Of a stretch of 64,000 nt of DNA, positions 1,384 to 62,787 are shown piece after piece. The first letter of the stretch is position 1; every line of letters starts with the position of its first letter. The stretch comes from an uncultured delta proteobacterium (lineage in GTDB: Bacteria; Myxococcota_A; Polyangia; Polyangiales; B10-G4): the NCBI GenBank assembly GCA_963727445.1, contig CAVSGI010000010.1, positions 1,152,001 to 1,216,000 on the forward strand, in the 5' to 3' direction. The position numbers and the translations under genes were made by a program. The notes beneath the pieces were generated by a model. It worked only from the letters and a program-made list of their open reading frames with translations, ran no database searches and was not told the origin of the DNA.

Positions 1384-3585
1384 ATGGCGGGTTGGCGCTG
1401 GCGAGCGTTCGGACAGGCAGTCGTGAGCCTCGCGCTCCTCTGGGGAGGATGCGCAGAGGGCGACGCGGGCCCAGACGCGGGAAGGCCCGACGTCTCGCAC
1501 CTGGACGGCGGGGCAATCTACGCAGCTCAGTGCGCGTCGTGTCATGGCGAGGTGGGTGAAGGCGGCCTCGGGCCGTCGCTCGTCGATTGGTCGCGCGGCG
1601 AAGACGCGCTCATCGACATCATCGACGTCCGGATGCCTCAGACCAATCCGGCGGCTTGCGACGAAGCCTGCGCCACCGCGGTCGGACGCTACGTCATCGC
1701 GACCTTCACCAGCGAAGCGCTCGCATGCGACGAGATCACACCAGGCCCACGGCAGCTTCGACTGCTCACCCGCCGCGAGTATCGGAACACGATCTACGAC
1801 CTCTTCCCGACGCTGGCGCCGGGCGCGGAGGCCGCGGCGGATCCGGGCGCCACCGAGCCCTGCGGCCTGACGCACTTCCGCTACGACCCCGGCGGAAGGT
1901 CGCTCTCGAGCGTGAGCGTCGCCGGCAGCTTCAACGCGTGGTCTCCCACGGCCTGGCCGATGAGCCTCGACGCGAGCGGCGTCTGGGTCCTCGACCAGAC
2001 GCTGGCCGAGGGCACCCACCAGTACAAGCTGGTGCTCGACGGAAGCGAGTGGGTGACGGATCCCTCGAACTCGGATCACGCCGCGGATGGCTTTGGCGGG
2101 CAGAACTCGGTCATCGTCGTCTCCTGCAGCAGCACCAGCCCGGCGCCCTCGACGACCGCGGGTCTCACCGACCCAGCCGACGGCTTCCCGGTGGAGACGC
2201 GGCCCGACGGATTCCCCTTCGACGACCACGCCGAGTCGGGGCGTGTCACCCCGGTTCACGCGGAGGAGCAGCTCCGCGCGGCCGCGCGCGTGGCGACCGC
2301 CCTGGGCGACGGCATCGCCGACCTCGCCCCCTGCGACCTCGCCGAGGGCGCGAGCTGCGCCGAAGCCTTCGCCCGCGACTTCGGCGCGCGCGTCTTCCGC
2401 CGCCCCCTCGAGGACCGCGAGGTCACGCGCTACGCGGCGCTCGTCACCGGCGCCGCCACGCCGGCCGAAGGCCTCGGGATTCCCCTTCGCGCCATGCTGG
2501 TCTCGCCCGCCTTCCTCTATCGCAGCGAGGTGGGGGAGGCGCAGGACGACGGCACCTTCGCCCTCACCGGCTGGGAGATCGCCAGCGCCCTGTCCTACGG
2601 CATCTGGGGGACCATGCCCGACGAGGCGCTCTTCGATGCCGCGGCCGACGGAAGCCTCGAAACTGACGAAGGCATCACCCGCGAGGCCCAGCGTCTCCTC
2701 GCCGACCCGCGCGCCGGCGCGCTCCTCGGCGAGGTCGGCATCCAGTGGCTCGGCGTGGAGGCCATCGCCGACAAGCCGAAGTCGAACGTGCTCTTCCCCG
2801 ACTTCGACGATGCGCTCCGCGCGTCGATGCTCGAAGAGACGCGCCGCTTCGTCGCGCACGTGGTGCTCGAAGGAAGCGGCCGCTTCGACGAGCTCCTCAC
2901 CGCCGACTACACCTTCGCCGACGCGCGCCTCGCCCGTCACTACGGCATCGGCGGCGTGGACGGCGACACCCCCACGCTGACGCCCACCGCGCCCGAGCGC
3001 GCTGCCGGCGTCCTCGGCCACGCGTCGGTCCTCGCCCGCTACGCGCACTCGGACCAGAGCTCGCCCATCCAGCGCGGCGTCTTCGTCCGCCGCCGCATCC
3101 TCTGCCAGGACTTCGCGCCGCCGCCGCCCAACGCGGGCGGCGTCCCCGACGTCGACCCGGAGGCCACCACCCGCGAGCGCTTCGCGCAGCACACCGCGGA
3201 CACGGTCTGCCGCGGCTGTCATCAGTACATCGACGAGGTGGGCTTCGGCTTCGAGAGCTTCGACGCGGTCGGCGCGTTCCGCACCACGGATCAAGGCCGC
3301 CCGGTCGACAGCCACGGCGACATGGGCGACGTCGAAGGCATGGGAACGAACACCTCGGCGCCGTTCTCGACCCTGCCCGAGCTCGGCCAGATCCTCGCCG
3401 AGAGCGACGCCGCCGAGGCCTGCTTCGTGCGGCAGTACACGCGCTACGCGCGCGGCATGCGCGAGCGGGCCGAGGACCGATGCGCTCTCCTCGACCTGGC
3501 GGAGCGCTTCAGCGCGAGCGGCGGCGACATTCGCACGCTCATCGTCGACACCTACCTCTCCCCAGCCTTTCGGAGGAGAAAGTGA
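1384..3585 (+). CDS. Diheme cytochrome c lipoprotein of the DUF1592/DUF1588/DUF1595 (PSD/PSCyt) family with an inserted CBM48-like glycogen-binding domain
   Basis: Lipobox-like WGGC; CASCH and CRGCH; LRLLTRREYRNTIYDL, SPAFLYRSE, SSPIQRGVFVRRRILC, GFGFESFDAVG; insert VAGSFNAW...HQYKLVLDGSEWVTDPSN...DGFGGQNSVI at 1861-2127. Confidence 0.85.
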   Translation: MAGWRWRAFGQAVVSLALLWGGCAEGDAGPDAGRPDVSHLDGGAIYAAQCASCHGEVGEGGLGPSLVDWSRGEDALIDIIDVRMPQTNPAACDEACATAVGRYVIATFTSEALACDEITPGPRQLRLLTRREYRNTIYDLFPTLAPGAEAAADPGATEPCGLTHFRYDPGGRSLSSVSVAGSFNAWSPTAWPMSLDASGVWVLDQTLAEGTHQYKLVLDGSEWVTDPSNSDHAADGFGGQNSVIVVSCSSTSPAPSTTAGLTDPADGFPVETRPDGFPFDDHAESGRVTPVHAEEQLRAAARVATALGDGIADLAPCDLAEGASCAEAFARDFGARVFRRPLEDREVTRYAALVTGAATPAEGLGIPLRAMLVSPAFLYRSEVGEAQDDGTFALTGWEIASALSYGIWGTMPDEALFDAAADGSLETDEGITREAQRLLADPRAGALLGEVGIQWLGVEAIADKPKSNVLFPDFDDALRASMLEETRRFVAHVVLEGSGRFDELLTADYTFADARLARHYGIGGVDGDTPTLTPTAPERAAGVLGHASVLARYAHSDQSSPIQRGVFVRRRILCQDFAPPPPNAGGVPDVDPEATTRERFAQHTADTVCRGCHQYIDEVGFGFESFDAVGAFRTTDQGRPVDSHGDMGDVEGMGTNTSAPFSTLPELGQILAESDAAEACFVRQYTRYARGMRERAEDRCALLDLAERFSASGGDIRTLIVDTYLSPAFRRRK

Positions 3586-4951
3586 TGTGGAGTAAGCAGA
3601 CCCGACGCCGCTTTCTGCGCGGCATGCTGGGAGCCGCGGCGGCGGCGCCTCTGGGCCTCGCCATCGGCCACGCCGCGCGCGCCCTCGATCCTTCGGGCCG
3701 CGCCCAACGCGTCATCTTCTTCTACTTCCCCGACGGTGTCGGCGGCGTCTCCGAGAGCGGCGAGGCCTCTCTCTTCGACGCGCGGCTCGAGGGGGGCGCG
3801 GTGCAGCTGAGCGAGATCCTCGAGCCCCTCGGCGATCGAAAGCGCCACTGCGTGTTCCTCAACGGGCTGTCGATGGGCTCGGTGGACGAGGGCTCGCATC
3901 CCGGCGGCGCCAAGAAGCTCCTCACGGGCACCGACGGCGGCTACGGCATGAGCATCGACCAGTTCCTCGCCGGCAGCGCGGGCGCCGACGCGCCGCATCG
4001 CCATCTCTATCTGGGCGCGATGGCGAACGCCGACGGCGCGAGCGGCGACAAGCACATCAGCTATCCCTCGGCGGGCTTCACCACGCCGCCCGAGGACGAC
4101 CCCCGCGAAGCCTTCCGGCGCGTCTTCGGCGCGGCGCTCCCGCGCGCCCGGCCCCGGCATGCCCGACACCGGCGCGGCGGCCACGCGCAGCATCATCGAC
4201 ACCGCCATCGCCGACATCACGGACCTGCGCGTGCGCCTCGGCGACCTCGAGCGGAGCCGCCTCGACCTGCATCTGGACGCGCTGCGCGAGGTGGAGGGTC
4301 GCATCGATGCGCTGCCGCCGCCGATGGCCGCGAGCTGCGACGAGCCGGCCGGTCCCGACGACTTCGGCGCGCGCCTCTACGACCCCGAGCTCTTCCCCGA
4401 CATCCTGCGCGCCCAGATGGATCTCATGGTCCAGGCGATGGCGTGCGGCCTGACCCGCGTCGGCGTGATCGCAGGCCTCGCACCACACCAGCGAGCTCAT
4501 CATGAGCCGCTTCCCCGGCACGGCGATGTACGACCCGGGCTTCGACATGCGCAGCCATCAGGCCTCGCACTACGGCGCGCGCCACGACCGCTCGAATCGG
4601 CTCTTCGTCGACTTCCTCGCCCAGCGCCGCTGGTTCGTGCAGCAGCTCGGCTACCTGATCAATCAGCTGGCCGCGCGGCCCGAGGGCGCCTCCGGGGAGA
4701 CCATGCTAGACCACTCTCTCGTCCTGGTGAGCAGCGAGGTCTCGGACGGGAACACCCACAGTCATCACGACATGCCCTTCGTCCTCGCGGGCCACGCCGG
4801 TGGCTCGCTCAGCGGCGAACGGGTGCTCGAGTTCGGAGGCCGCCGCCACGGCGACCTCCTCGCCTCGATCGCGCACGCGATGGGGCAGCCGGTGATGGGC
4901 TACGGCACGGACAGCCACGGGCCCCTCGACGGTCTCCTCTCCGGAAGTTGA
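3585..4951 (+). CDS. DUF1552 (HXXSHH) family Tat-exported protein, split by two +1 frameshifts (~4143, ~4471)
   Basis: MWSKQTRRRFLRG Tat signal; FFYFPDG, SIDQFLA, RLDLHLDALREVE, AMACGLTRV, HQASHY, MPFVLAG spread over three successive frames; start overlaps upstream stop (GTGATG). Confidence 0.8.
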
Positions 4952-4955
4952 AGAC

Positions 4956-5846
4956 ATGGCAGAATCGGACGTCGTCGATGCCCTGGTAGAGCTGGGCTTC
5001 ACCATCAACGAGAGCCGCGCTTACGCCGCGCTCCTCGTCGCGGGACCTTCGACCGGCTACGAGGTGCACCAGCGCGCAGGCGTCCCGCGCTCCGCCGTCT
5101 ACGGCTCGCTCCGGCGCCTCGTCTCCCACGGGGCGGCGCGCTCGGTGGCGGGCTCACCCGAGCGCTTCGTCGCCGTCGCGCCCGAAGAGCTGATGGTGCT
5201 GCTTCGCAAGCGCCACGACGCACAGCAAGCCGGCCTCGAGCGGGCCATCTCCACCCTCGACGTCCAGCCCGACGTGCCCGAGGCCTTCACCGTCGAAGGC
5301 TACGAGCGCATCATGGAAGAGGTGGAGCGGCTGGTGCGCACCGCGGAGGATCAGCTGGTGATCAGCGGTTGGCCGCGCGAGCTCGCGCGCCTCGAGTCGG
5401 AGCTCGCCGCCGCGAGCCGGCGTGGCGTGTACACCGTCCTGTTCTCCCACGCGTCGCTGCCACGCGACCTCGCGGGCATCCATTTCAGCTACGGCCGAAA
5501 CGAGGCGGACCTCGAGGACTTCTGGGAACACCGCCTGACCATCGTCGCCGACGACAAGCGGACGCTGATCGGCGCGGTCGAGGGGCGAGCCAGCGACGCC
5601 GCCGTGCTCAGCGAGACCCAGGCCATCGCCGAGGTGGCGACCAGCCAGATCGCGCTGGACATCACGCTGCTCGCGCAGCGCCACGGTCACGACGTCGAGA
5701 AGGTGATGGCGCGCATCCTGGGCGACCGGGTCGGGCGCCTCGACACCCTGGAAGGCAAGGGCGAAGGCGCGGTGGTCGGCAAGCGGCGAAGCGCGCCGAA
5801 GAAGCAGGGCGGCAAGGCCGCCGCCACCGAGGAGGTGGCGTCGTGA
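4956..5846 (+). CDS. TrmB family (sugar-responsive) transcriptional regulator
   Basis: LVELGFTINESRAYAALL...AGVPRSAVYGSLRRL winged HTH plus PLD-like sensing domain (LTIVADDKRTLIG). Confidence 0.85.
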   Translation: MAESDVVDALVELGFTINESRAYAALLVAGPSTGYEVHQRAGVPRSAVYGSLRRLVSHGAARSVAGSPERFVAVAPEELMVLLRKRHDAQQAGLERAISTLDVQPDVPEAFTVEGYERIMEEVERLVRTAEDQLVISGWPRELARLESELAAASRRGVYTVLFSHASLPRDLAGIHFSYGRNEADLEDFWEHRLTIVADDKRTLIGAVEGRASDAAVLSETQAIAEVATSQIALDITLLAQRHGHDVEKVMARILGDRVGRLDTLEGKGEGAVVGKRRSAPKKQGGKAAATEEVAS

Positions 5847-7930
5847 TCCGTTTCTTCCTCGCGTCGTCGCTCGTGCTCGCGGCGTTCGGCTGCGCCGAGC
5901 CCGGCACCTCGGCGCCGGACTCGGGTTATCCGGATCGCGCCGACGGCGGACCGATCCCCGGCTACGGCCAGCCGTGCAGCAGCGGCTATGGCAGCGGCCT
6001 CAGCTGCACCGACAGCGGCGTCACCACCATGCCCGACACCGGGCCCCCGCCCCCGCCGTGCAACCAGCACACCTTCACGTACGTCGACGCGATGGCGTCC
6101 ACCGTCTGGGTCACCGGCAGCTTCACCGACTGGGCGACCACGCCGGCAGAGGGCGCCATCGAGCTGATGGACGACGGCACCGGCACCTGGTCCGTCACCT
6201 TCCTGGTCGAGCCGCCGGGTGAGCATCAGTACAAGTTCATCATCGACGGCACGACGTGGATCCCCGATCCCGAAAACCCCGACAGCGTCGACGACGGCTT
6301 CGGCAGCACCAACAGCGTCATCACCCTGTGCTTCACCAGCTGCGGCAACGCCGACGACTACGACTGGCGCGACGCCGTGATGTATTTCGCGATGGTCGAC
6401 CGCTTCAGCGATTCGGACGGGCGGAGCGATCCGGTGGCCGGCGTGAGCGGGGGCGACGCGCGGACCGGGCCCAGCGGGCAATACGCGGGCGGCGATCTGC
6501 GCGGCGTGATGAACCAGCTCGAGTACCTCGCCAACCTCGGCGTGACCGCGCTCTGGCTCTCGGCTCCTTACGAAAACCGCAACTCCGCGGGCGCGGCGAT
6601 CGACCCCTTCTCGGATTCACACACCTACTCGGCCTATCACGGCTATTGGCCCTCGCCGCCGGCCGTCGACTACTCGGCGGCGGGCGGCCCGTCGCCGCGG
6701 CCTCGGGTCGAGTCGCGCATCGGCACCGAGTCCGATCTGCGCGCGCTGGTCGACGAGGCGCACGCCACCATGGGCGCCGACGGCCACGGCATGAAGGTGC
6801 TCTTCGACTACGTGATGAACCACGTGGACATCGAGAGCGGGCTCTACGGCGCGCATCCCGACTGGTTCGCCCGGCGCGACGGGCGCTTCCCCCTCTGCGG
6901 TCCCGAAAACCTCTGGGACGACCCCTACTGGGGCATCCGCTGCGCCTTCACCGACTACCTGCCGGCCTTCGATTTCGACAACGACGCAGCACGCGGCTGG
7001 TCGGTGAGCGACGCCCTGTGGTGGGCCGAGGAGTATGGCATCGACGGCTACCGCCTCGACGCGATCAAGCAGGTGCCCGAGTCGTGGCTCATGGACCTTC
7101 GAGCGCGGCTGAACACCGAGATCACCAGCCCCGAGGGCGACCGCTTCTATCTGGTCGGCGAGACCTTCAGCTACGACGATCCGGGACTGCTCCGGCGCTA
7201 TGTCGACCCCTCCACCATGCTCGACGGCCAGTTCGACTTCCCCTTCAAGGCGCGCGCCTGCGAGGCGCTCTTCACGCCTGGCGGACGCCTCGACACCCTC
7301 TCGGGGTGGATGGATGACAACGATCGCTTCTACGGACCGGACGCGATCATGAGCACCTGGATCGGCAACCACGACATCCCGCGCGCCATCCACTTCGCGA
7401 GCCGGGAGATCACCGACTGCCGCCAGGGCAGCAATCCCGGCAACGGCTGGGACTGGCGCCCGGCGCAGCCCACCGACGCCGCCGCTTACGAGCGGCTCTC
7501 CCTCGCCTTCGCCGTGATGTTCACCAACCCTGGCATCCCCCTCATCTACTACGGCGACGAGATCGGCCTGGCCGGCGGGGGCGATCCGGACAATCGCCGG
7601 ATGATGAACTGGAACGACTCTTCGCTGAGCCCGGCCCAGCTCACGCTCCGCGAGCGGGTGGGCGAGCTCGCGCGGGCGCGCGCGGTCAACAAGGTCCTGT
7701 CGCGCGGCCGCCGCATGACCATCTCCGCCGACCAGGACACCTGGGTGTACCGGATGACCGGCTGCGGCGCGGACATCCCGGACGCGGTGGTCGCGATCAA
7801 CCGCGCCGACTCGGGCCGCTCGGTCGACATCCCTGCCGGCTCCTGGGTGAACCTCATCACCGACGCGCCCGTCGCCGGGGGCCGGGTCGACCTCGGCCCC
7901 AGAAGCTACCTCCTGCTCGGACAACCCTGA
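5843..7930 (+). CDS. GH13 alpha-amylase family lipoprotein with N-terminal CBM48-like domain
   Basis: GTG start overlapping TrmB stop; lipobox AFGC; GGDLRG, YHGYW, DYVMNH, catalytic GYRLDA / VGET / GNHD, YYGDEIG. Confidence 0.9.
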   Translation: MIRFFLASSLVLAAFGCAEPGTSAPDSGYPDRADGGPIPGYGQPCSSGYGSGLSCTDSGVTTMPDTGPPPPPCNQHTFTYVDAMASTVWVTGSFTDWATTPAEGAIELMDDGTGTWSVTFLVEPPGEHQYKFIIDGTTWIPDPENPDSVDDGFGSTNSVITLCFTSCGNADDYDWRDAVMYFAMVDRFSDSDGRSDPVAGVSGGDARTGPSGQYAGGDLRGVMNQLEYLANLGVTALWLSAPYENRNSAGAAIDPFSDSHTYSAYHGYWPSPPAVDYSAAGGPSPRPRVESRIGTESDLRALVDEAHATMGADGHGMKVLFDYVMNHVDIESGLYGAHPDWFARRDGRFPLCGPENLWDDPYWGIRCAFTDYLPAFDFDNDAARGWSVSDALWWAEEYGIDGYRLDAIKQVPESWLMDLRARLNTEITSPEGDRFYLVGETFSYDDPGLLRRYVDPSTMLDGQFDFPFKARACEALFTPGGRLDTLSGWMDDNDRFYGPDAIMSTWIGNHDIPRAIHFASREITDCRQGSNPGNGWDWRPAQPTDAAAYERLSLAFAVMFTNPGIPLIYYGDEIGLAGGGDPDNRRMMNWNDSSLSPAQLTLRERVGELARARAVNKVLSRGRRMTISADQDTWVYRMTGCGADIPDAVVAINRADSGRSVDIPAGSWVNLITDAPVAGGRVDLGPRSYLLLGQP

Positions 7931-7937
7931 GGCGTTC

Positions 7938-9638
7938 GTGAAGCAGTACCCGCGAGCGCTCTTCGGCCTGCTCCTGCTCGTGGGGTGTGGGACCGAGAGC
8001 GAGCCGCGGCCGGCCGTCGCCACACACGTGGACGATTGGCGCGACGAGGTCATCTACGAGGTGCTCACCGACCGCTTCGAGAACGGCGACACCGGCAACG
8101 ACGATGTCGACGGCGTGTCCATCGTCCCCGGCGATCTGTCTCGGCATCAGGGCGGCGACTGGGCGGGCATGCGCGCGCGCCTTCCCTATCTCGAGCATCT
8201 GGGGATCACCACGCTCTGGATCTCGCCCATCGTGAAGAACCTGCCGCGGACCGAGACCGAGGACGGCTATCACGGCTACTGGGCGTCGGACTTCACGGAG
8301 ATCAACGACCGCTTCGGCAGCGTGGAGGACCTGCGCGGGCTCGTCGACGACGCCCACGACCGCGGCATGAAGGTGATCATCGACGTGGTGATGAATCACG
8401 CCGGGCGCGTGTTCTCCTACGACCTCGACCGCGACGGAGTGTCGGACCCGGACGAGTGGGAGCCGCCCTACTCGCCCACGCCCATCGACGCGCCTCTCGT
8501 GTGGGTCACCGATCCGCCGCGGATGTGGACGCCGAGCGCCCTGCTCTCGAGCGACCCCTTCGCGGACCCGGACATCTTCACCCTGGACGAATCGCACTTC
8601 CACCGCCGCGGCGCCAACAATTGGGAGAGCGTCGACGAGGTGCTCTTCGGGGACTTTCCGACGGGCCTCAGGGATCTGGCGACCGAGCGCGACGACATCC
8701 AGAGCGCGTTGGTCGAGACCTACGCGCAGTGGGTGCGGATCACCGACGTCGACGGTTTCCGCCTCGACGCCGTGCCGCACATCGCCCCGAGCGAATGGGC
8801 GATCCTGGCGAGCCGCCTCCGGGAGCGCCTGGCCGCGATGGGAAAACACGACTTCCTGCTCCTCGGCGAGGTCTTCAGCCCCGACGCAGAGGAGCTCTCA
8901 CGCTATGTGGAGCCGGGGATGCTCGACACGGTCTTCGACTTCACCTTCCGCGAGTACGTCATCGACCAGGTGATCCTCGCCGGGTTGCCCCCCACCTACG
9001 CGCGCCCCGCCTTCGACCCCCTCGAAAACGCGCTCCCGCGAACGCCACAGCCCATGGGCATCGGGCTCACGCCGCACCAGGCCCGCGTCGCTTTTGCCGA
9101 CAATCACGACACCCAGCGGATCCGGAACATCCTCGACGATCCCTACGCGGTGGAGATGGCCATGACCGCGGTCTTCACCATCGACGGCATCCCATCGGTC
9201 TACTACGGCACCGAGCAGGGCATGAGCGGCGGCGGCCACCACGCCTCCCGCGAGGTGCTCTGGGAGACGGGCTTCGACGAAACGCATCCCACCTACGAGC
9301 TCATCGCGCGCCTCGCGGCGCTCAGGCGCGCACATCCCGCGCTTCGCTATGGCGCGCTCTACGTCCGCTTCTTGAGCCCGAGCGGGGGTCTGTCGACCGA
9401 AGACGACGCCTCCCTCTTCGCCTGGGAGCGCGCCCACGGAGATGACCGCACCCTCAGCGTCTTCAACGCGCACGCCTACAAGGAGAGCGAAGCGACGATC
9501 CCGACGGGCTTCGCGCCGGGCACTGTTCTGAGGGACGAGATCTACGACCTGATCCCACCCGTGACGGTGAACGGCGACGGCAGCGTCCAGGTGCGGCTGC
9601 CGCCGCGCAGCGCGGTCCTGCTCGCTGTGAGCTCGTGA
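7938..9638 (+). CDS. GH13 alpha-amylase/cyclomaltodextrinase-like lipoprotein
   Basis: Lipobox LVGC; DRFENGD, GGDWAG, YHGYW, DVVMNH, GFRLDA / LGEV / DNHD, YYGTEQG. Confidence 0.9.
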   Translation: MKQYPRALFGLLLLVGCGTESEPRPAVATHVDDWRDEVIYEVLTDRFENGDTGNDDVDGVSIVPGDLSRHQGGDWAGMRARLPYLEHLGITTLWISPIVKNLPRTETEDGYHGYWASDFTEINDRFGSVEDLRGLVDDAHDRGMKVIIDVVMNHAGRVFSYDLDRDGVSDPDEWEPPYSPTPIDAPLVWVTDPPRMWTPSALLSSDPFADPDIFTLDESHFHRRGANNWESVDEVLFGDFPTGLRDLATERDDIQSALVETYAQWVRITDVDGFRLDAVPHIAPSEWAILASRLRERLAAMGKHDFLLLGEVFSPDAEELSRYVEPGMLDTVFDFTFREYVIDQVILAGLPPTYARPAFDPLENALPRTPQPMGIGLTPHQARVAFADNHDTQRIRNILDDPYAVEMAMTAVFTIDGIPSVYYGTEQGMSGGGHHASREVLWETGFDETHPTYELIARLAALRRAHPALRYGALYVRFLSPSGGLSTEDDASLFAWERAHGDDRTLSVFNAHAYKESEATIPTGFAPGTVLRDEIYDLIPPVTVNGDGSVQVRLPPRSAVLLAVSS

Positions 9639-9716: not shown

Positions 9717-10970
9717 ATGCGCGCAGACCTCGCCTCCATCGCCGCTCTCATCGTCACCGCCGCCGCGCTCGCCGGCTGCGCTTCGAACGGCCGCCGGCCC
9801 ACCGGGGACACCGGGGTTGGGGTGGGCGACGCAGGCGTGGACACGAGCCCCCCCTCGGACACCGGTCCCGGACCAGACGCCACGCCGGATACGGGTCGCG
9901 TGGACACGGGCGCCGCGGACACCGGCACGATGGACACCGGCACGGTGGACACCGGCACGGTGGACACCGGCACGATGGACACGGGGCCGGGAGGCTGCGC
10001 CGCCGTGACCTGCGCGACGAACGCGACCTGCGCCGACGACACCGGCACGCCGATCTGCACCTGCGACGCGGGATACAGCGGCGACGGCACCACCAGCTGC
10101 ACGGACGTGGACGAGTGCACACCGTCCGATCCCTGCGGTATGGGCATGTGCGTGAACGCGCCGGGCAGCTACAGCTGCAGCTGCGATCCCGGATACACCT
10201 TCGACGGGACGACCTGCGCCGACGTGAACGAATGCGTGCCCACCGATCCCTGCGGCATGGGCACCTGCACCAACGAGGCCGGCAGCTACACCTGCGCGTG
10301 TCCCATGGGCTATCGCTTCGATGGAACGACCTGCGTCGTCGCCTCCGGCACCGTGCTCGTCTTCCGCGGATCGACCCGCACGACCGACACGACCGCGGCG
10401 GACGCCGTCACCGCCCTCGGCCTCACGCTGATCGACACAACCACCGACACCGCGTTCAACGCGGCGTTCGATGCCGGAGGCTTCGACGTGATCGTCTGGA
10501 CATCCCCGTCGGGCGTCGCTTCGAGCTCGCTGACCTCGGCCGTCGAATCACGACTCAGCACCTGGGTCTCCGGCGGCGGCGCGCTCATCTTCGCGTACTG
10601 GGACCTCGACACGCGCACCACCTTCAGGGCGGTGCTCGGCGTGAGCACCTCGGAGCGCACCACCTGGGTGAACCTCCAGCCGGCGATGGGCGATCCCTTC
10701 GGCTTCTTCGCGGGGGTGCCCAACCCGCTCACCGGGACGGACTCGGGCTGGGCGGACAACGGCGACTACCTCGCCCTCACCGGCGCGGGCTCCATCGCCG
10801 CCACTTTCGTCTCCGGAAGCCCCTCCGGCGCCATCGCCGTCACGCAGAGCAACCGCGTCATCACCAACGGCTTCCTCTTCTCCGACTGCCTCACCGAGGA
10901 CGTCGACACCGACGGCGTCCCCGACTGCCAGGAGCTGGCGCAGAACGAGATCAGCTACCTGCTACCCTGA
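9717..10970 (+). CDS. Lipoprotein with DTG linker, calcium-binding EGF-like repeats and a C-terminal alpha/beta domain
   Basis: Lipobox LAGC; DVDEC...CVNAPGSYSCSC and DVNEC...CTNEAGSYTCAC; tail FDVIVW...WVSGGGALIF resembles a GATase1/ThuA-like fold (weak). Confidence 0.8.
   Translation: MRADLASIAALIVTAAALAGCASNGRRPTGDTGVGVGDAGVDTSPPSDTGPGPDATPDTGRVDTGAADTGTMDTGTVDTGTVDTGTMDTGPGGCAAVTCATNATCADDTGTPICTCDAGYSGDGTTSCTDVDECTPSDPCGMGMCVNAPGSYSCSCDPGYTFDGTTCADVNECVPTDPCGMGTCTNEAGSYTCACPMGYRFDGTTCVVASGTVLVFRGSTRTTDTTAADAVTALGLTLIDTTTDTAFNAAFDAGGFDVIVWTSPSGVASSSLTSAVESRLSTWVSGGGALIFAYWDLDTRTTFRAVLGVSTSERTTWVNLQPAMGDPFGFFAGVPNPLTGTDSGWADNGDYLALTGAGSIAATFVSGSPSGAIAVTQSNRVITNGFLFSDCLTEDVDTDGVPDCQELAQNEISYLLP
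9918..9977 (+). repeat. 15-bp coding tandem repeat GACACCGGCACGRTG x4 (DTGT[MV])
   Basis: Directly visible. Confidence 0.85.
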
Positions 10971-59506: not shown

Positions 59507-60289
59507 TCAGCGCGAGCGAGACCGCGCCGTGTGGAGTCGCCGCCGCCGTACCCAGAGGGCGAGGAGAGTCAGCGCGACCATCCACGCCAAAGCGCCAGGA
59601 GCGGAAGCGACGCGGACCCCGGCGCTGCTGCACGCGCCATACGACGCCCCTCCGTCGGGGTCGGTCGCGGGACCTGTGGGTCCACCAGCCGCGTCGGGCT
59701 CGGGCCCGCCGTCATATGCGGGAGGAGGCGAGGTGTCGCGCGAGACCGCGCCGCCATCGGGCTCGGCGCCGGGAGGCGCGCCGGCATCGCCCGCGTCGGG
59801 CGGCGGTGCACTGCCACCGCCGGCGCGGATCGCGATGTCCGAGCACTGGAAGTAGTTGCCGGCGCCGTACATGACCTGGATCAGCTGCAGCACGCAGCGC
59901 TCGCACTCCACGTCGTCCGGCAGGATCACGTCGAAGGTGTAGCGCCCCCCACCGCGCTCGTCGGGGATTCCGTCCACCAGCACGGTCGGCGAGTTGTAGA
60001 GATCGTCGTCGCCGACGGGCGCGACGAGATCATCGTCGCCATCGGTGTCGAGGGCGATGCGGTAGTGCGCGTCGTGGTCGATGGTCTCGTCCCACATGAC
60101 GGTGATGGTGTCGCCGGGCGCGTAGACCGCGACCGTGTCACCGCGCGGCAGGTCCGTCGTCCCGCACGGCCCCTGCTTCTGCTGATCCGTGCGCGGCGGC
60201 GGGTCCAGAAGAGTGATGTGCGCGTGGGCGGTTCCCCCGCCGAACCACACCCCGCAAAACGCGGCCATCGCCAAGCTTCGACGCAACAC
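59507..60289 (-). CDS. SCE4755-family polysaccharide monooxygenase-like protein with MYXO-CTERM-like anchor
   Basis: Signal peptide AHA|H exposing an N-terminal His; GPCG, TIDH, CERCVLQLIQ, YFQCSDI; tail GACS...hydrophobic...RRRR; start could be 60268. Confidence 0.8.
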   Translation of the reverse strand: MLRRSLAMAAFCGVWFGGGTAHAHITLLDPPPRTDQQKQGPCGTTDLPRGDTVAVYAPGDTITVMWDETIDHDAHYRIALDTDGDDDLVAPVGDDDLYNSPTVLVDGIPDERGGGRYTFDVILPDDVECERCVLQLIQVMYGAGNYFQCSDIAIRAGGGSAPPPDAGDAGAPPGAEPDGGAVSRDTSPPPAYDGGPEPDAAGGPTGPATDPDGGASYGACSSAGVRVASAPGALAWMVALTLLALWVRRRRLHTARSRSR

Positions 60290-60417
60290 GAAGAGATGGA
60301 ATCGCAAGAGACGGGCCAAGCGCAGCTCACGACGAACACGCGCTTTTTCGGCAGACGAGCGCCCTCGGTGGGGAACCGGGAACGTTCCGAGCGCCGCGAG
60401 TCGCGTAGAATGTTCGA

Positions 60418-62787
60418 GTGAAAGGACTCGCGGCGGCGGCGCTCCTCGTCTCGACTTCGCTGGCGATCGGTTGCGGCGACGACGGCGCGGCTTCTGACGA
60501 CGGAAGCGTTTCCGTCGACGGAGGTGATGGTGACCTGCAGATGCCGGCGCCGCCCGCACCGCCGATGGCCTCCACGCGGACCTGCCCAACAGGCTGGGAG
60601 CGCATCGACGGGCGCGCGGGGTCGGCGTGTGCGCCGTGGGTCGACTCGCCCGCGTGCGGGCCGAACGAAGCGCAATTCCCTGGAGACAGCGCGTGCGCAC
60701 TGGTGGGAGCGGCGTGCCCGAGCGGGGAATTCGCCGACGGGCTTCCGGCGGGGACGGTGTACGTGCGCGAAGGCGCCAGTGGTGGCGACGGAACGGAGGC
60801 TTCGCCCTTGGGTGAGCTCGGGATGGCCCTCGCCCTCGCGGGGACGGGGGGAACGATCGCCCTTTCGGCGGGGACCTACGAAGGAGGCGTCGTGCTTCCG
60901 GAGGGCGTCACGATCCGCGGCGCCTGCGCCTCGTTGACGACCATCACCAGCACCGTGGAGTCGTCCCCCACGGATCCCGCGGTGATCACGAGCGGAGGCG
61001 GCACCGCGACTTTGCGCGATCTGACGATCCGCTCGCCGCTCCGCGCCGGCGTGGTCGTGCTCGGCGACGGAAACGCGATCGCCGCACAGGGCGTGATCAT
61101 CGCCGACAGCCACATCGGCGGCGTCATCGCGTCCGCTGGCGGGCACTTCGTCGGAAGCGAAGTGGTGATCCGCGGGACGCGTCCCCGCGATGACGGGATG
61201 GGCGGCACCGGTGTCTCCGCCGAGTCCGGCGGGAGCGCGGAGCTCCACCGCGCCATCGTCGAGGACAACGAGCTCCAGGGCGTCACCGTCTCCACGACCC
61301 GCGGCTCCCTGTTCCTCGAGGATGTCGTCGTGCGTCAAACACGGTCGCAGCGCTCGGACGGAGATTTCGGTCAGGGGGTGGCCGCGGCGGGTGGCGCATC
61401 CGTCGAGGCCCACCGGCTGGTGATCGAAGACAGCCAGCACGGCGGGCTCTTCCTGGACGGGGTCGACACCTCCTTCATCGGCGAGGACGTGGTGGTGCGG
61501 CGAACCCGGCCCCGCACCTCGGACGAGACCCTGGGGCGCGGCGTGTCGGTGGTGCTGGGCGCGACCGCGATCATCCACGGGCTCCTCGTGGAGGACAGCG
61601 TGGACGCGGGACTGCTCGTGGGCGGCGACAGAACGACGTTCACCGGGACTGATGGTCTGATCCGGCGGACGATGAGCGCCCCCACCACCGGCGAGGACGG
61701 CGCGGGTGCGTTCGTACAGATGGGCGGCCTCTTGACCCTCGAACGCGTCGCTGTCGAGGAGGTGCGAAGCGTCGGAGTCTTCGCGGTGGGGCTCGGGTCT
61801 TCGGCGGAGCTCACCGACGTGTCGGTAGAGGCGGTGACAGCCGACGCGCGTGACCTGGACGGGCACGGCATGGTGGTGAGCGAGGGTGCGTCGCTGAGCG
61901 GGACGCGTGTGCACATCGAAGAGAGCACGGCGAGCGGGCTCTTCGTGACCGACGCGGACTCGCGCGCGGAGATCGAGGACGCGTCGATTCGAGCAACCGC
62001 GCCCTCCTCCGACGGCGGGGGCGGCCGCGGCATCAACGTCCAGGACGGCGCGAGCCTCACGCTGACGAGGGCGCTCGTGGAAGCGAACCACGAGACGGGC
62101 ATCTTCGTGGACGGCAGCGCCATCGCGCTCACGGACGTGCGCGTGGCGGATACCCAGCTACGCGCGGACGGCTACGGGGGCCGCGGGATCAACGCCCAGC
62201 TGAGCTCGACCGTGACGGTGGCGCGGGTCGCGGTGGACGGGTCGCACGAGGTGGGCGTCTTGCTCGCGGGCGGCTCGTCGCTCGAGGGCGAGGATCTGCA
62301 CGTGAGCGATACGCGTGAGTCGACGGCGCCGGGGGGCGATGGGCGAGGGATGTCGATCCAGCTCTCCGACGCGACGCTGAGGCGGGTGTCGGTGCGCGAC
62401 AGTCACGGGCTGGGCATCTTCGTCTACGGCGTCTCGCATCTCGAGGCGAGCGCGATCGTCGTGGAGGACACCGTGGCGGCGGACTGCTCCATCACCACCT
62501 GCACCGGCACCCTGGCCCACGGTCACGGCGTCGGCGTCTACGGCGACGCCTCGGCGGACCTCAGCGACCTGCTCATCCAGCGCTCCGCGGTATGCGGCAT
62601 TCACATCGGCGAGGGCGCCGAGGTCGACCTCGCCAACGGCGTCATCCGCGAAAACGCCATCGGCGCGTGCGTCCAGAACGCAGACCTCGACCTCGCTCGC
62701 CTGCAGCACGACGTCGCGTACGACGACAACGGCACCAACCTGGAAGCCACGCGGCTCCCCGTGCCGATGGCGAGTAGCGAGCTCTGA
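60418..62787 (+). CDS. Right-handed beta-helix (pectin-lyase-like) repeat lipoprotein
   Basis: Lipobox AIGC; VYVREGASGGDGTEASP, IALSAGTYE; repeated GxGxxvxxGasxxL units. Confidence 0.85.
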   Translation: MKGLAAAALLVSTSLAIGCGDDGAASDDGSVSVDGGDGDLQMPAPPAPPMASTRTCPTGWERIDGRAGSACAPWVDSPACGPNEAQFPGDSACALVGAACPSGEFADGLPAGTVYVREGASGGDGTEASPLGELGMALALAGTGGTIALSAGTYEGGVVLPEGVTIRGACASLTTITSTVESSPTDPAVITSGGGTATLRDLTIRSPLRAGVVVLGDGNAIAAQGVIIADSHIGGVIASAGGHFVGSEVVIRGTRPRDDGMGGTGVSAESGGSAELHRAIVEDNELQGVTVSTTRGSLFLEDVVVRQTRSQRSDGDFGQGVAAAGGASVEAHRLVIEDSQHGGLFLDGVDTSFIGEDVVVRRTRPRTSDETLGRGVSVVLGATAIIHGLLVEDSVDAGLLVGGDRTTFTGTDGLIRRTMSAPTTGEDGAGAFVQMGGLLTLERVAVEEVRSVGVFAVGLGSSAELTDVSVEAVTADARDLDGHGMVVSEGASLSGTRVHIEESTASGLFVTDADSRAEIEDASIRATAPSSDGGGGRGINVQDGASLTLTRALVEANHETGIFVDGSAIALTDVRVADTQLRADGYGGRGINAQLSSTVTVARVAVDGSHEVGVLLAGGSSLEGEDLHVSDTRESTAPGGDGRGMSIQLSDATLRRVSVRDSHGLGIFVYGVSHLEASAIVVEDTVAADCSITTCTGTLAHGHGVGVYGDASADLSDLLIQRSAVCGIHIGEGAEVDLANGVIRENAIGACVQNADLDLARLQHDVAYDDNGTNLEATRLPVPMASSEL

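Follow-up and report, generated by a model that had tools for sequence, protein, structure and literature searches.

The window, which is the whole stretch of 64,000 nucleotides that was analysed, is part of contig C10 of a 9.47-Mb genome (G000) whose protein relatives belong to Myxococcota. Near its start lie five genes on the forward strand, and the first two of these, encoding a DUF1592 haem protein and a DUF1552 protein, are the subject of the current work. It is quite probable that the two proteins form a haem/metal heterodimer linked to alpha-glucans. The features of the locus, in window coordinates, are the following.

1347-1372: putative palindromic operator with 8-bp arms and a 10-bp spacer, ending 2 bp before a GGAGG ribosome-binding site (1375-1379); likely target of the TrmB-like protein.
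1384-3585, + strand: DUF1592-group (CAZy X132-type) di-haem lipoprotein of 733 residues, from Pfam, an AlphaFold2 model (pLDDT 91.6) and 119 orthologues.
1498-1713, + strand: X183-type c-cytochrome domain, residues 39-110, with C50/C53/H54, axial Met84 and a C92/C96 pair.
1861-2127, + strand: CBM48-like (AMPK1_CBM) domain of glycogen/starch-binding type, residues 160-248, from Pfam, fold matches and conserved residues (CBM, carbohydrate-binding module).
3208-3222, + strand: second CxxCH motif (C609-H613), in PSCyt3.
3585-4951, + strand: DUF1552 (HXXSHH) protein with a twin-arginine translocation (Tat) start, an alkaline phosphatase (AP)/sulfatase-superfamily fold and a predicted His-rich metal site; two frameshifts.
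4956-5846, + strand: TrmB-family regulator with a winged helix-turn-helix and a short effector domain (Pfam); likely binds the operator, judging from co-occurrence.
5843-7930, + strand: GH13a, a lipoprotein of glycoside hydrolase (GH) family 13 that has a CBM48-like domain at its N-terminus and all its catalytic motifs intact.
7938-9638, + strand: GH13b, a GH13 lipoprotein; in Myxococcota, genes of its type are usually found after LamB.

The preliminary description of this DNA had reported five co-oriented genes with junctions of GTGATG, 4 bp, GTGA and 7 bp, and this row was borne out together with most of its gene assignments. The first product, described as a di-haem DUF1592 protein, carries PSD3, PSD5, PSD4, PSCyt3 and PSD2 in Pfam and two CxxCH motifs; the supposed TrmB matches PF01978 (E 9e-18); and the two GH13 products, described as lipoproteins with intact triads, match PF00128 and have a lipobox Cys and the RLD, GE and NHD motifs, with the Asp/Glu/Asp triad. 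Genes for ATP-binding cassette (ABC) or TonB transporters are absent from the five-gene operon, as had been stated. For the Tat-exported DUF1552 protein, the twin-arginine start at 3585 was found, but the gene is not one open frame. The term orphan does not apply to the pair, as the genome carries 25 PSD4 (DUF1592) genes and 27 DUF1552 loci. The CBM48-like insert, the lipobox of the DUF1592 protein, the second CBM48-like domain in GH13a and the palindrome at 1347-1372 were all absent from that description. Neither a sigma-70 promoter nor an informative terminator was found.

The DUF1592 protein runs from a lipobox Cys23 through the X183 cytochrome c domain to a PSD3 domain split by the CBM48-like insert, and then through PSD5, PSD4, PSCyt3 and PSD2. 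The PSD2-5 and PSCyt3 domains are united in one protein with DUF1552 adjacent, and all Pfam matches were above the gathering cut-offs. The protein is itself a lipoprotein, with Cys23 kept in 112 of 119 orthologues; the alignment comprised the 119 best of 541 protein matches, with one longer match left out. The X183 domain has its best PDB sequence match in 8q1v (TtX183A, Teredinibacter TERTU_2913; E 2e-9) and resembles it in fold (Z 10.6, root-mean-square deviation (rmsd) 2.4 A over 72 residues), with further fold matches to 8q1w and 7b21 (Cbp2D; Z 8.8 to 7b21). Residues C50, C53, H54 and M84 align with C18, C21, H22 and M55 of TtX183A, as numbered in PMC10916295, which points to a His/Met c-type cytochrome, and the axial Met84 is invariant in all 119 orthologues. 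In the PSCyt3 region, H603 is invariant in the subfamily and is a candidate distal ligand of the second haem (C609-H613). For the helical X132 core, no fold match was present among the matches listed, the whole protein having been compared and its two small domains filling the list. Among the 25 DUF1592 paralogues of the genome, only the window copy has a CBM and a second CxxCH.

The insert in PSD3 matches AMPK1_CBM (PF16561) over residues 164-247 with E 1.7e-8 and 35 bits against a cut-off of 26.8. All 119 orthologues have its residues W186, K215 and W223, and 118 of the 119 have N241; from numbering read off the alignment, we take these to be the equivalents of W100, K126, W133 and N150 of AMPK beta. 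The best fold matches are AMPK, SEX4 and amylase CBM48s, and 42% identity is shared with the CBM of GH13a (tblastn). As a module of glycogen/starch-binding type, the insert would hold glucan. Orthologues with it were present in 20 of 400 sampled genomes of the phylum. In a tree of 57 cores, 16 CBM48 proteins and the CBM-less protein of locus L173 formed one group (support 99/95), with two gammaproteobacterial proteins as its sister on a short branch (95/85). Three gammaproteobacterial proteins (L331, L335 and L336), the two sisters among them, join starch modules of CBM26 type, a sugar-dehydrogenase (GSDH) domain and more than one haem to the DUF1592 core; two of these three CBM26-type loci are beside GH13 genes, which lie ahead of the proteins in L331 and L336.

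L331:5282-10996, L335:2709-9536 and L336:2720-9193: CBM26/GSDH/DUF1592-core proteins of 1900-2275 residues, with 2-4 CBM26, a GSDH of pyrroloquinoline quinone (PQQ) type and four CxxCH, each followed by DUF1552.

The palindrome at 1347-1372, a perfect 8-bp inverted repeat, abuts the ribosome-binding site of the DUF1592 gene. TrmB/Mal loci in 5 other genomes supplied 8 sites for a position weight matrix, which was applied with a threshold of 14, a score that shuffles reach in 0.1%. The window site has the top score in the 9.47-Mb genome (24.4), and the second-best site precedes another GH13. A near-identical site lies before the trmB-GH13a-GH13b unit of locus L060, and related sites lie before other trmB genes. 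Of the CBM-type DUF1592 genes, 14 of 49 are preceded by a site scoring at least 14, and of the non-CBM genes 0 of 38, in a count that omits 15 CBM and 49 non-CBM entries with no lipobox start or no upstream DNA. A simpler core after the haloarchaeal TrmB site, TACT-N(7-8)-GAGTA (PMC2710871), gave 11 of 49 versus 0 of 38 and is only partly independent. Among the paralogues of G000 itself, the site precedes 1 of 25 DUF1592 genes, and no other paralogue scores above 7.8.

Presence of the site follows that of the regulator. A TrmB homologue was found in 10 of 25 pair-bearing genomes. In 7 of the 9 TrmB-positive genomes that could be scored (three of the 7 being of one genus), the pair has the site directly ahead of it, as against 0 of 15 TrmB-negative ones. 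The exceptions among the TrmB-positive genomes are G142, with its site 1.5 kb upstream, and G054, a Mal-operon case; G442 has both site and TrmB and G441 has neither, a consistent co-occurrence. It is likely, from these patterns, that the TrmB-like protein binds 1347-1372 and controls the pair. In the five genomes scanned, for which 56 nearby open reading frames were compared with Pfam, sites precede genes of LamB, GH13, GH57, GH31, phosphorylase, MalK, phosphofructokinase and trmB, and amino-acid and lipid genes as well. The regulon looks like one of alpha-glucan uptake and central metabolism, as for archaeal TrmB. Many site matches in G102 lack a clear target. The operator was not found before the LamB or MalK genes of G000, nor in 29 short GH13b loci, whose 1.5-kb flanks mostly stop short of the operon start. 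Compared with haloarchaeal TrmB (PMC2710871), the likeness lies in the winged helix-turn-helix, the ACT..GAGT palindrome core and targets that mix sugar uptake with central metabolism, whereas the window TrmB is bacterial, has 296 residues and a putative site with a consensus of about GTRACTCA-N4-TGAGTYAC. It scores far below the archaeal equivalog cut-offs and below the NCBIfam cut-offs of Thermococcales TrmB/TrmBL1.

Operator sites were also seen in the gaps of two TrmB loci of relatives: L071 (G054), where TrmB lies among genes for phosphoenolpyruvate carboxylase, glucokinase, phosphofructokinase and GH13, and L072 (G024), where TrmB lies beside phosphorylase and divergent from a LamB-GH13-GH13-MalK-substrate-binding protein row. 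Right behind operator sites, L264:9755-12448, L259:485-2221, L268:2721-4295 and L271:1508-2518 encode proteins that look exported and match a family weakly or not at all (one matches DUF6209); these are further candidate alpha-glucan proteins.

As a conserved unit, the five-gene operon was rejected. The neighbourhood survey that had been proposed as a check found TrmB near 0 of 44 and GH13 near 1 of 44 orthologous genome loci (19 + 8 + 17), several of them on short contigs where absence is weak evidence. The sole GH13 case is L096, with the order ABC permease-LamB-GH13-DUF1592-DUF1552; a GH31 gene lies 3.5 kb from L006 and a GH15 gene 0.6 kb from L093. In L173, whose protein falls within the CBM48 clade, the row GH13-GH13-pair-ABC ATPase is divergent from LamB and Mal genes. 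Relatives yielded 14 TrmB homologues, of which 3 adjoin GH13s and none adjoins the pair, and in most genomes the pair stands alone. The window order is thus local, the pair being joined there to a trmB-GH13a-GH13b unit that L060 has too. A LamB match was found in 15 of the 20 genomes with the pair and in 118 of the 380 others, uncorrected for kinship or genome size. The exported, haem-dependent alpha-glucan module of the preliminary description is thus retained in substance, and the link to alpha-glucans is supported by the CBM48-like insert, the shared operator and the two maltodextrin clusters L096 and L173, while the argument from the operon fails.

In G000 the LamB-like and MalG-like genes are on contig C2, apart from the window. 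The LamB-GH13 unit and the Mal ABC genes lie apart from each other there (C2:43014-46314 and C2:85184-89268), and the LamB gene, its GH13 and a neighbouring uvrA-like gene appear frame-broken.

The DUF1552 gene changes frame near 4130-4145 and at 4470/4471, and its Pfam match falls into two pieces. Because one base is absent at 4470/4471 in three contigs of related organisms, a comparison that covers the second shift only, and because frame breaks were found in 3 of 50 tested genes of the genome, the window DUF1552 included, both frameshifts are probably assembly errors. Fold work was done on an intact orthologue, P0043 (pLDDT 87). The fold matches listed for it, 50 in number, all belong to the alkaline-phosphatase/sulfatase superfamily (Z 16.5, rmsd 4.0 A, 263 residues), while the DUF1552 profile had no match below E 0.1 among PDB sequences. 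Likeness to this superfamily (6ioz, 5too, 8di0) extends over 263-268 residues with Z about 16 and rmsd about 4 A; DUF1552 differs in its identity of only about 10%, in a His for Ser/Thr/Cys at the inferred nucleophile, in extra His ligands, and in a helical hairpin predicted to dock on the cytochrome.

All 26 divergent DUF1552 paralogues have His97; H320 is found in 25 of them, H316 and H381 in 23, and E/D374 in 21, and the DUF1552 neighbours of Cbp2D type share the conserved His pattern. The first-strand Asp of the AP fold is not kept across the DUF1552 family, and Ser96 next to His97 occurs only in this subfamily. From AP and nucleotide pyrophosphatase/phosphodiesterase (NPP) motifs, in a positional reading, we take His97 to be at the nucleophile position and H316-x3-H320 with H381 to be the first metal site. 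This occupancy suggests that DUF1552 has a redox metal in a His-rich centre and is not a hydrolase. Export by the Tat route fits folding ahead of export.

A complex prediction, another of the proposed checks, gave a high-scoring DUF1592/DUF1552 interface beside the conserved His. It was made for the orthologue pair P0214/P0092, presumed cognate because their contigs are equally long, with iron ions, no haem and our own alignments, and scored 0.88 against 0.02 for the best of 3 controls. Of solved complexes, 116 of 157 attain the score mark, as do 2 of 215 mismatched pairs, counts that apply only roughly given the own alignments and iron ions. The runs share at least 90% of contacts, with partner pLDDT at least 89. 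In the model, PSD3/PSD5 helices pack against the DUF1552 helical hairpin, the CBM is not among the listed contacts, and DUF1592 loop 511-513, in the haem-bearing PSCyt3 region, contacts DUF1552 loops 93-96 and 308-311 beside the conserved His. The two proteins are accordingly predicted, by this modelling, to be a heterodimer.

X183, DUF1587 and a C-terminal CxxCH domain, X132, were described in TERTU_2913/TERTU_3803 and in Cellvibrio japonicus Cbp2D, whose X183 alone reduces lytic polysaccharide monooxygenases (LPMOs) (PMC8981238). Deletion of cbp2D impairs growth of Cellvibrio on cellulose, and direct cleavage was proposed by the authors (PMC12542752). In the supplement of that paper, cbp2E is CJA_2615, cbp2D is CJA_2616, and the hypothetical CJA_2617 is co-induced on cellulose (log2 fold changes of 2.21 and 2.02 versus 2.26 and 2.02). 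PSCyt3 proteins with CBMs beside DUF1552 had been proposed to act in carbohydrate redox chemistry (He et al. 2017, PMC5615132). Because the cellulose work on Cbp2D and the 2017 proposal with its CBM fusions came earlier, the preliminary claim of a first substrate clue for the family is untrue.

Among 13 gammaproteobacterial loci, taken from 36 matches for their long open frames, DUF1552 lies directly downstream in all 13. L334 encodes a 1123-residue CBM2-YceI-cytochrome c-PSD protein behind a CBM2-YceI gene, with DUF1552 next. Since this Cbp2E/Cbp2D layout comes with PSD domains, X132 is the PSD/DUF1592 cluster, as equated through the Pfam strings of the window protein and L334 and not through a CAZy X132 model. 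By analogy of gene order, CJA_2617 is predicted to be the DUF1552 partner of Cbp2D; no mention of such a partner was found in the available text of the Cbp2D and TERTU papers. Cbp2E-like, Cbp2D-like and DUF1552 genes were also observed in one row in L334:4117-9950 and L329:4762-10324.

Like Cbp2D and the TERTU proteins, the window protein is exported and has an X183 His/Met cytochrome, then DUF1587 and a C-terminal CxxCH domain, and a CBM. Unlike Cbp2D, it has a CBM48 inside PSD3 and not an N-terminal CBM2, lacks YceI (X158), FN3 and X122, and is lipid-anchored, 733 residues long and under putative TrmB-type control; by these domains, it is a relative and not an orthologue of Cbp2D. With the group III planctomycete-specific cytochromes (PMC5615132) it shares PSCyt3 and PSD2-5, the DUF1552 pairing, CBM fusions and a suggested carbohydrate role, whereas in the available text on those proteins no CBM48 is among the CBMs given, nor a substrate, regulator or structure.

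The pair is likely a starch-directed version of Cbp2D, the redox protein that Cellvibrio needs for growth on cellulose. DUF1592 and DUF1552 likely make up an exported, lipid-anchored redox enzyme of two subunits that is directed at starch/glycogen fragments, and the TrmB-like sugar regulator likely turns it on. With the glucan held by the CBM48-like insert, the X183 haem would take up electrons and hand them on through the PSCyt3 haem to the His-ligated metal in DUF1552, which, once reduced, would react with O2 or H2O2 and oxidise or cleave the bound alpha-glucan. The opened glucan would then go to the co-regulated GH13 amylases and to LamB/Mal uptake; in G000 the pair has come to head a trmB-GH13-GH13 unit. 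An inward direction is inferred because relatives fuse electron sources, a YceI quinone domain or a PQQ-type sugar dehydrogenase, to the core. Electron flow from haem to DUF1552 metal with oxidative attack on alpha-glucan is given slightly less than an even chance. A wider reading is tentative and on the whole less favoured: that DUF1552 is the catalytic subunit of widespread haem-fed polysaccharide oxidases with an AP fold and a His-bound metal, that the starch/glycogen member is LPMO-independent, and that the DUF1552 behind cbp2D (predicted CJA_2617) is the missing enzyme of the Cbp2D cellulose phenotype.

Several observations weigh against this interpretation. The five-gene operon is not conserved, Mal genes were found at 0 of 21 CBM-bearing metagenome loci, and 5 of 20 pair-positive genomes have no LamB match. 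GH13b is no commoner in genomes with the pair (2 of 20) than in the others (40 of 380), three candidates being scored per genome with kinship uncorrected. The operator is absent from 35 of 49 orthologues, 15 of 25 pair-bearing genomes are without a TrmB homologue, the training sites of the matrix were picked via a consensus written after some DUF1592 sites had been seen, and the regulon includes leucine dehydrogenase-like, glutamate synthase, M18 peptidase and acyl-CoA dehydrogenase genes. Several orthologues lack X183, L173 lacks the CBM, and CBM48-like folds also occur on esterases (8bbp, 3mga, 7b5v). The complex was modelled haem-free on a presumed cognate orthologue pair, and the DUF1552 gene is frameshifted in this assembly, therefore the window copy may be a dead pseudogene.

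The strongest alternative, which we consider unlikely, keeps the same complex and substrate and reverses the electron flow. The DUF1552 metal would act as a maltodextrin dehydrogenase or oxidase and the haems would export electrons to the respiratory chain or an LPMO-like acceptor, the whole being a bacterial analogue of cellobiose dehydrogenase. Consistent with this, Cbp2D X183 donates electrons to LPMOs (PMC8981238), the fold of X183 resembles that of the domain through which electrons leave TsdA (4v2k), and a gene for an SCE4755 monooxygenase-like protein lies 50 kb off in the window. A core to which relatives fuse their own electron sources (GSDH, YceI) fits a sink, however, and PF03067 was matched in only 1 of 5 site-bearing genomes.

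Distinctly less probable is a general carbon-status or envelope redox module, in which the CBM-like insert would be an anchor, the TrmB site part of a broad catabolite regulon, the amylase neighbourhood chance, and DUF1552 possibly decaying. The 25-27 paralogues per genome with varied neighbours, the non-sugar genes of the regulon, the mostly solitary orthologues without a site and the two DUF1552 frameshifts agree with it, whereas the site before the only CBM-bearing paralogue, the three separate loci (window, L096 and L173) that place the subfamily in Mal clusters, and the CBM26 version in another phylum do not. A DUF1552 hydrolase or transferase of the AP superfamily, removing for example glucan phosphate or sulfate in the manner of SEX4 (3nme, a CBM48 with a phosphatase) with the haem protein as scaffold or redox switch, would suit the 50 of 50 fold matches, but is very improbable in view of the His at the positionally read nucleophile in 26 of 26 paralogues, the unconserved first-strand Asp and the CxxCH kept by the haem partner in 23 of 24 other paralogues.

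In myxobacteria and related groups, a single genome carries dozens of DUF1592/DUF1552 pairs, for which no reaction is known. Cbp2D, the only relative that has been studied, is important for growth on cellulose, but of its parts the small cytochrome alone could be expressed; that work is predicted to have lacked the partner, CJA_2617, co-induced with cbp2D on cellulose. In the starch-type subfamily the system is compact and consists of two proteins; its substrate (maltodextrins) is likely soluble, its interface and metal site are predicted, and its regulator site can be read. If the proposed chemistry is true, glucan would be broken down oxidatively by a route that is new. New in the current work is the starch-type (CBM48) subfamily with its putative TrmB-type control, the Cbp2D or PSCyt3-DUF1552 kind being known already. 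In a search outside which most subscription papers lay, no publication was found on a starch-type DUF1592/DUF1552 member or a TrmB-type regulon, on DUF1592 jointly with DUF1552, on X183 with CBM48, on Cbp2D with CJA_2617, or on TrmB and maltose in myxobacteria.

Three further genes of the window may be mentioned. The SCE4755-family polysaccharide-monooxygenase-like protein (59507-60700, - strand; NF043005, above the cut-off) has a signal peptide followed by His, and a membrane anchor at its C-terminus. Divergent from the operator lies a gene for a Cys-rich MXAN_6577/STIG1-like lipoprotein (26-1345, - strand), and STIG1-like genes likewise occur near the pair in L011, L013, L015 and L018. A Cys-rich lipoprotein with epidermal growth factor (EGF) repeats is encoded 79 bp past GH13b (9717-10970, + strand).

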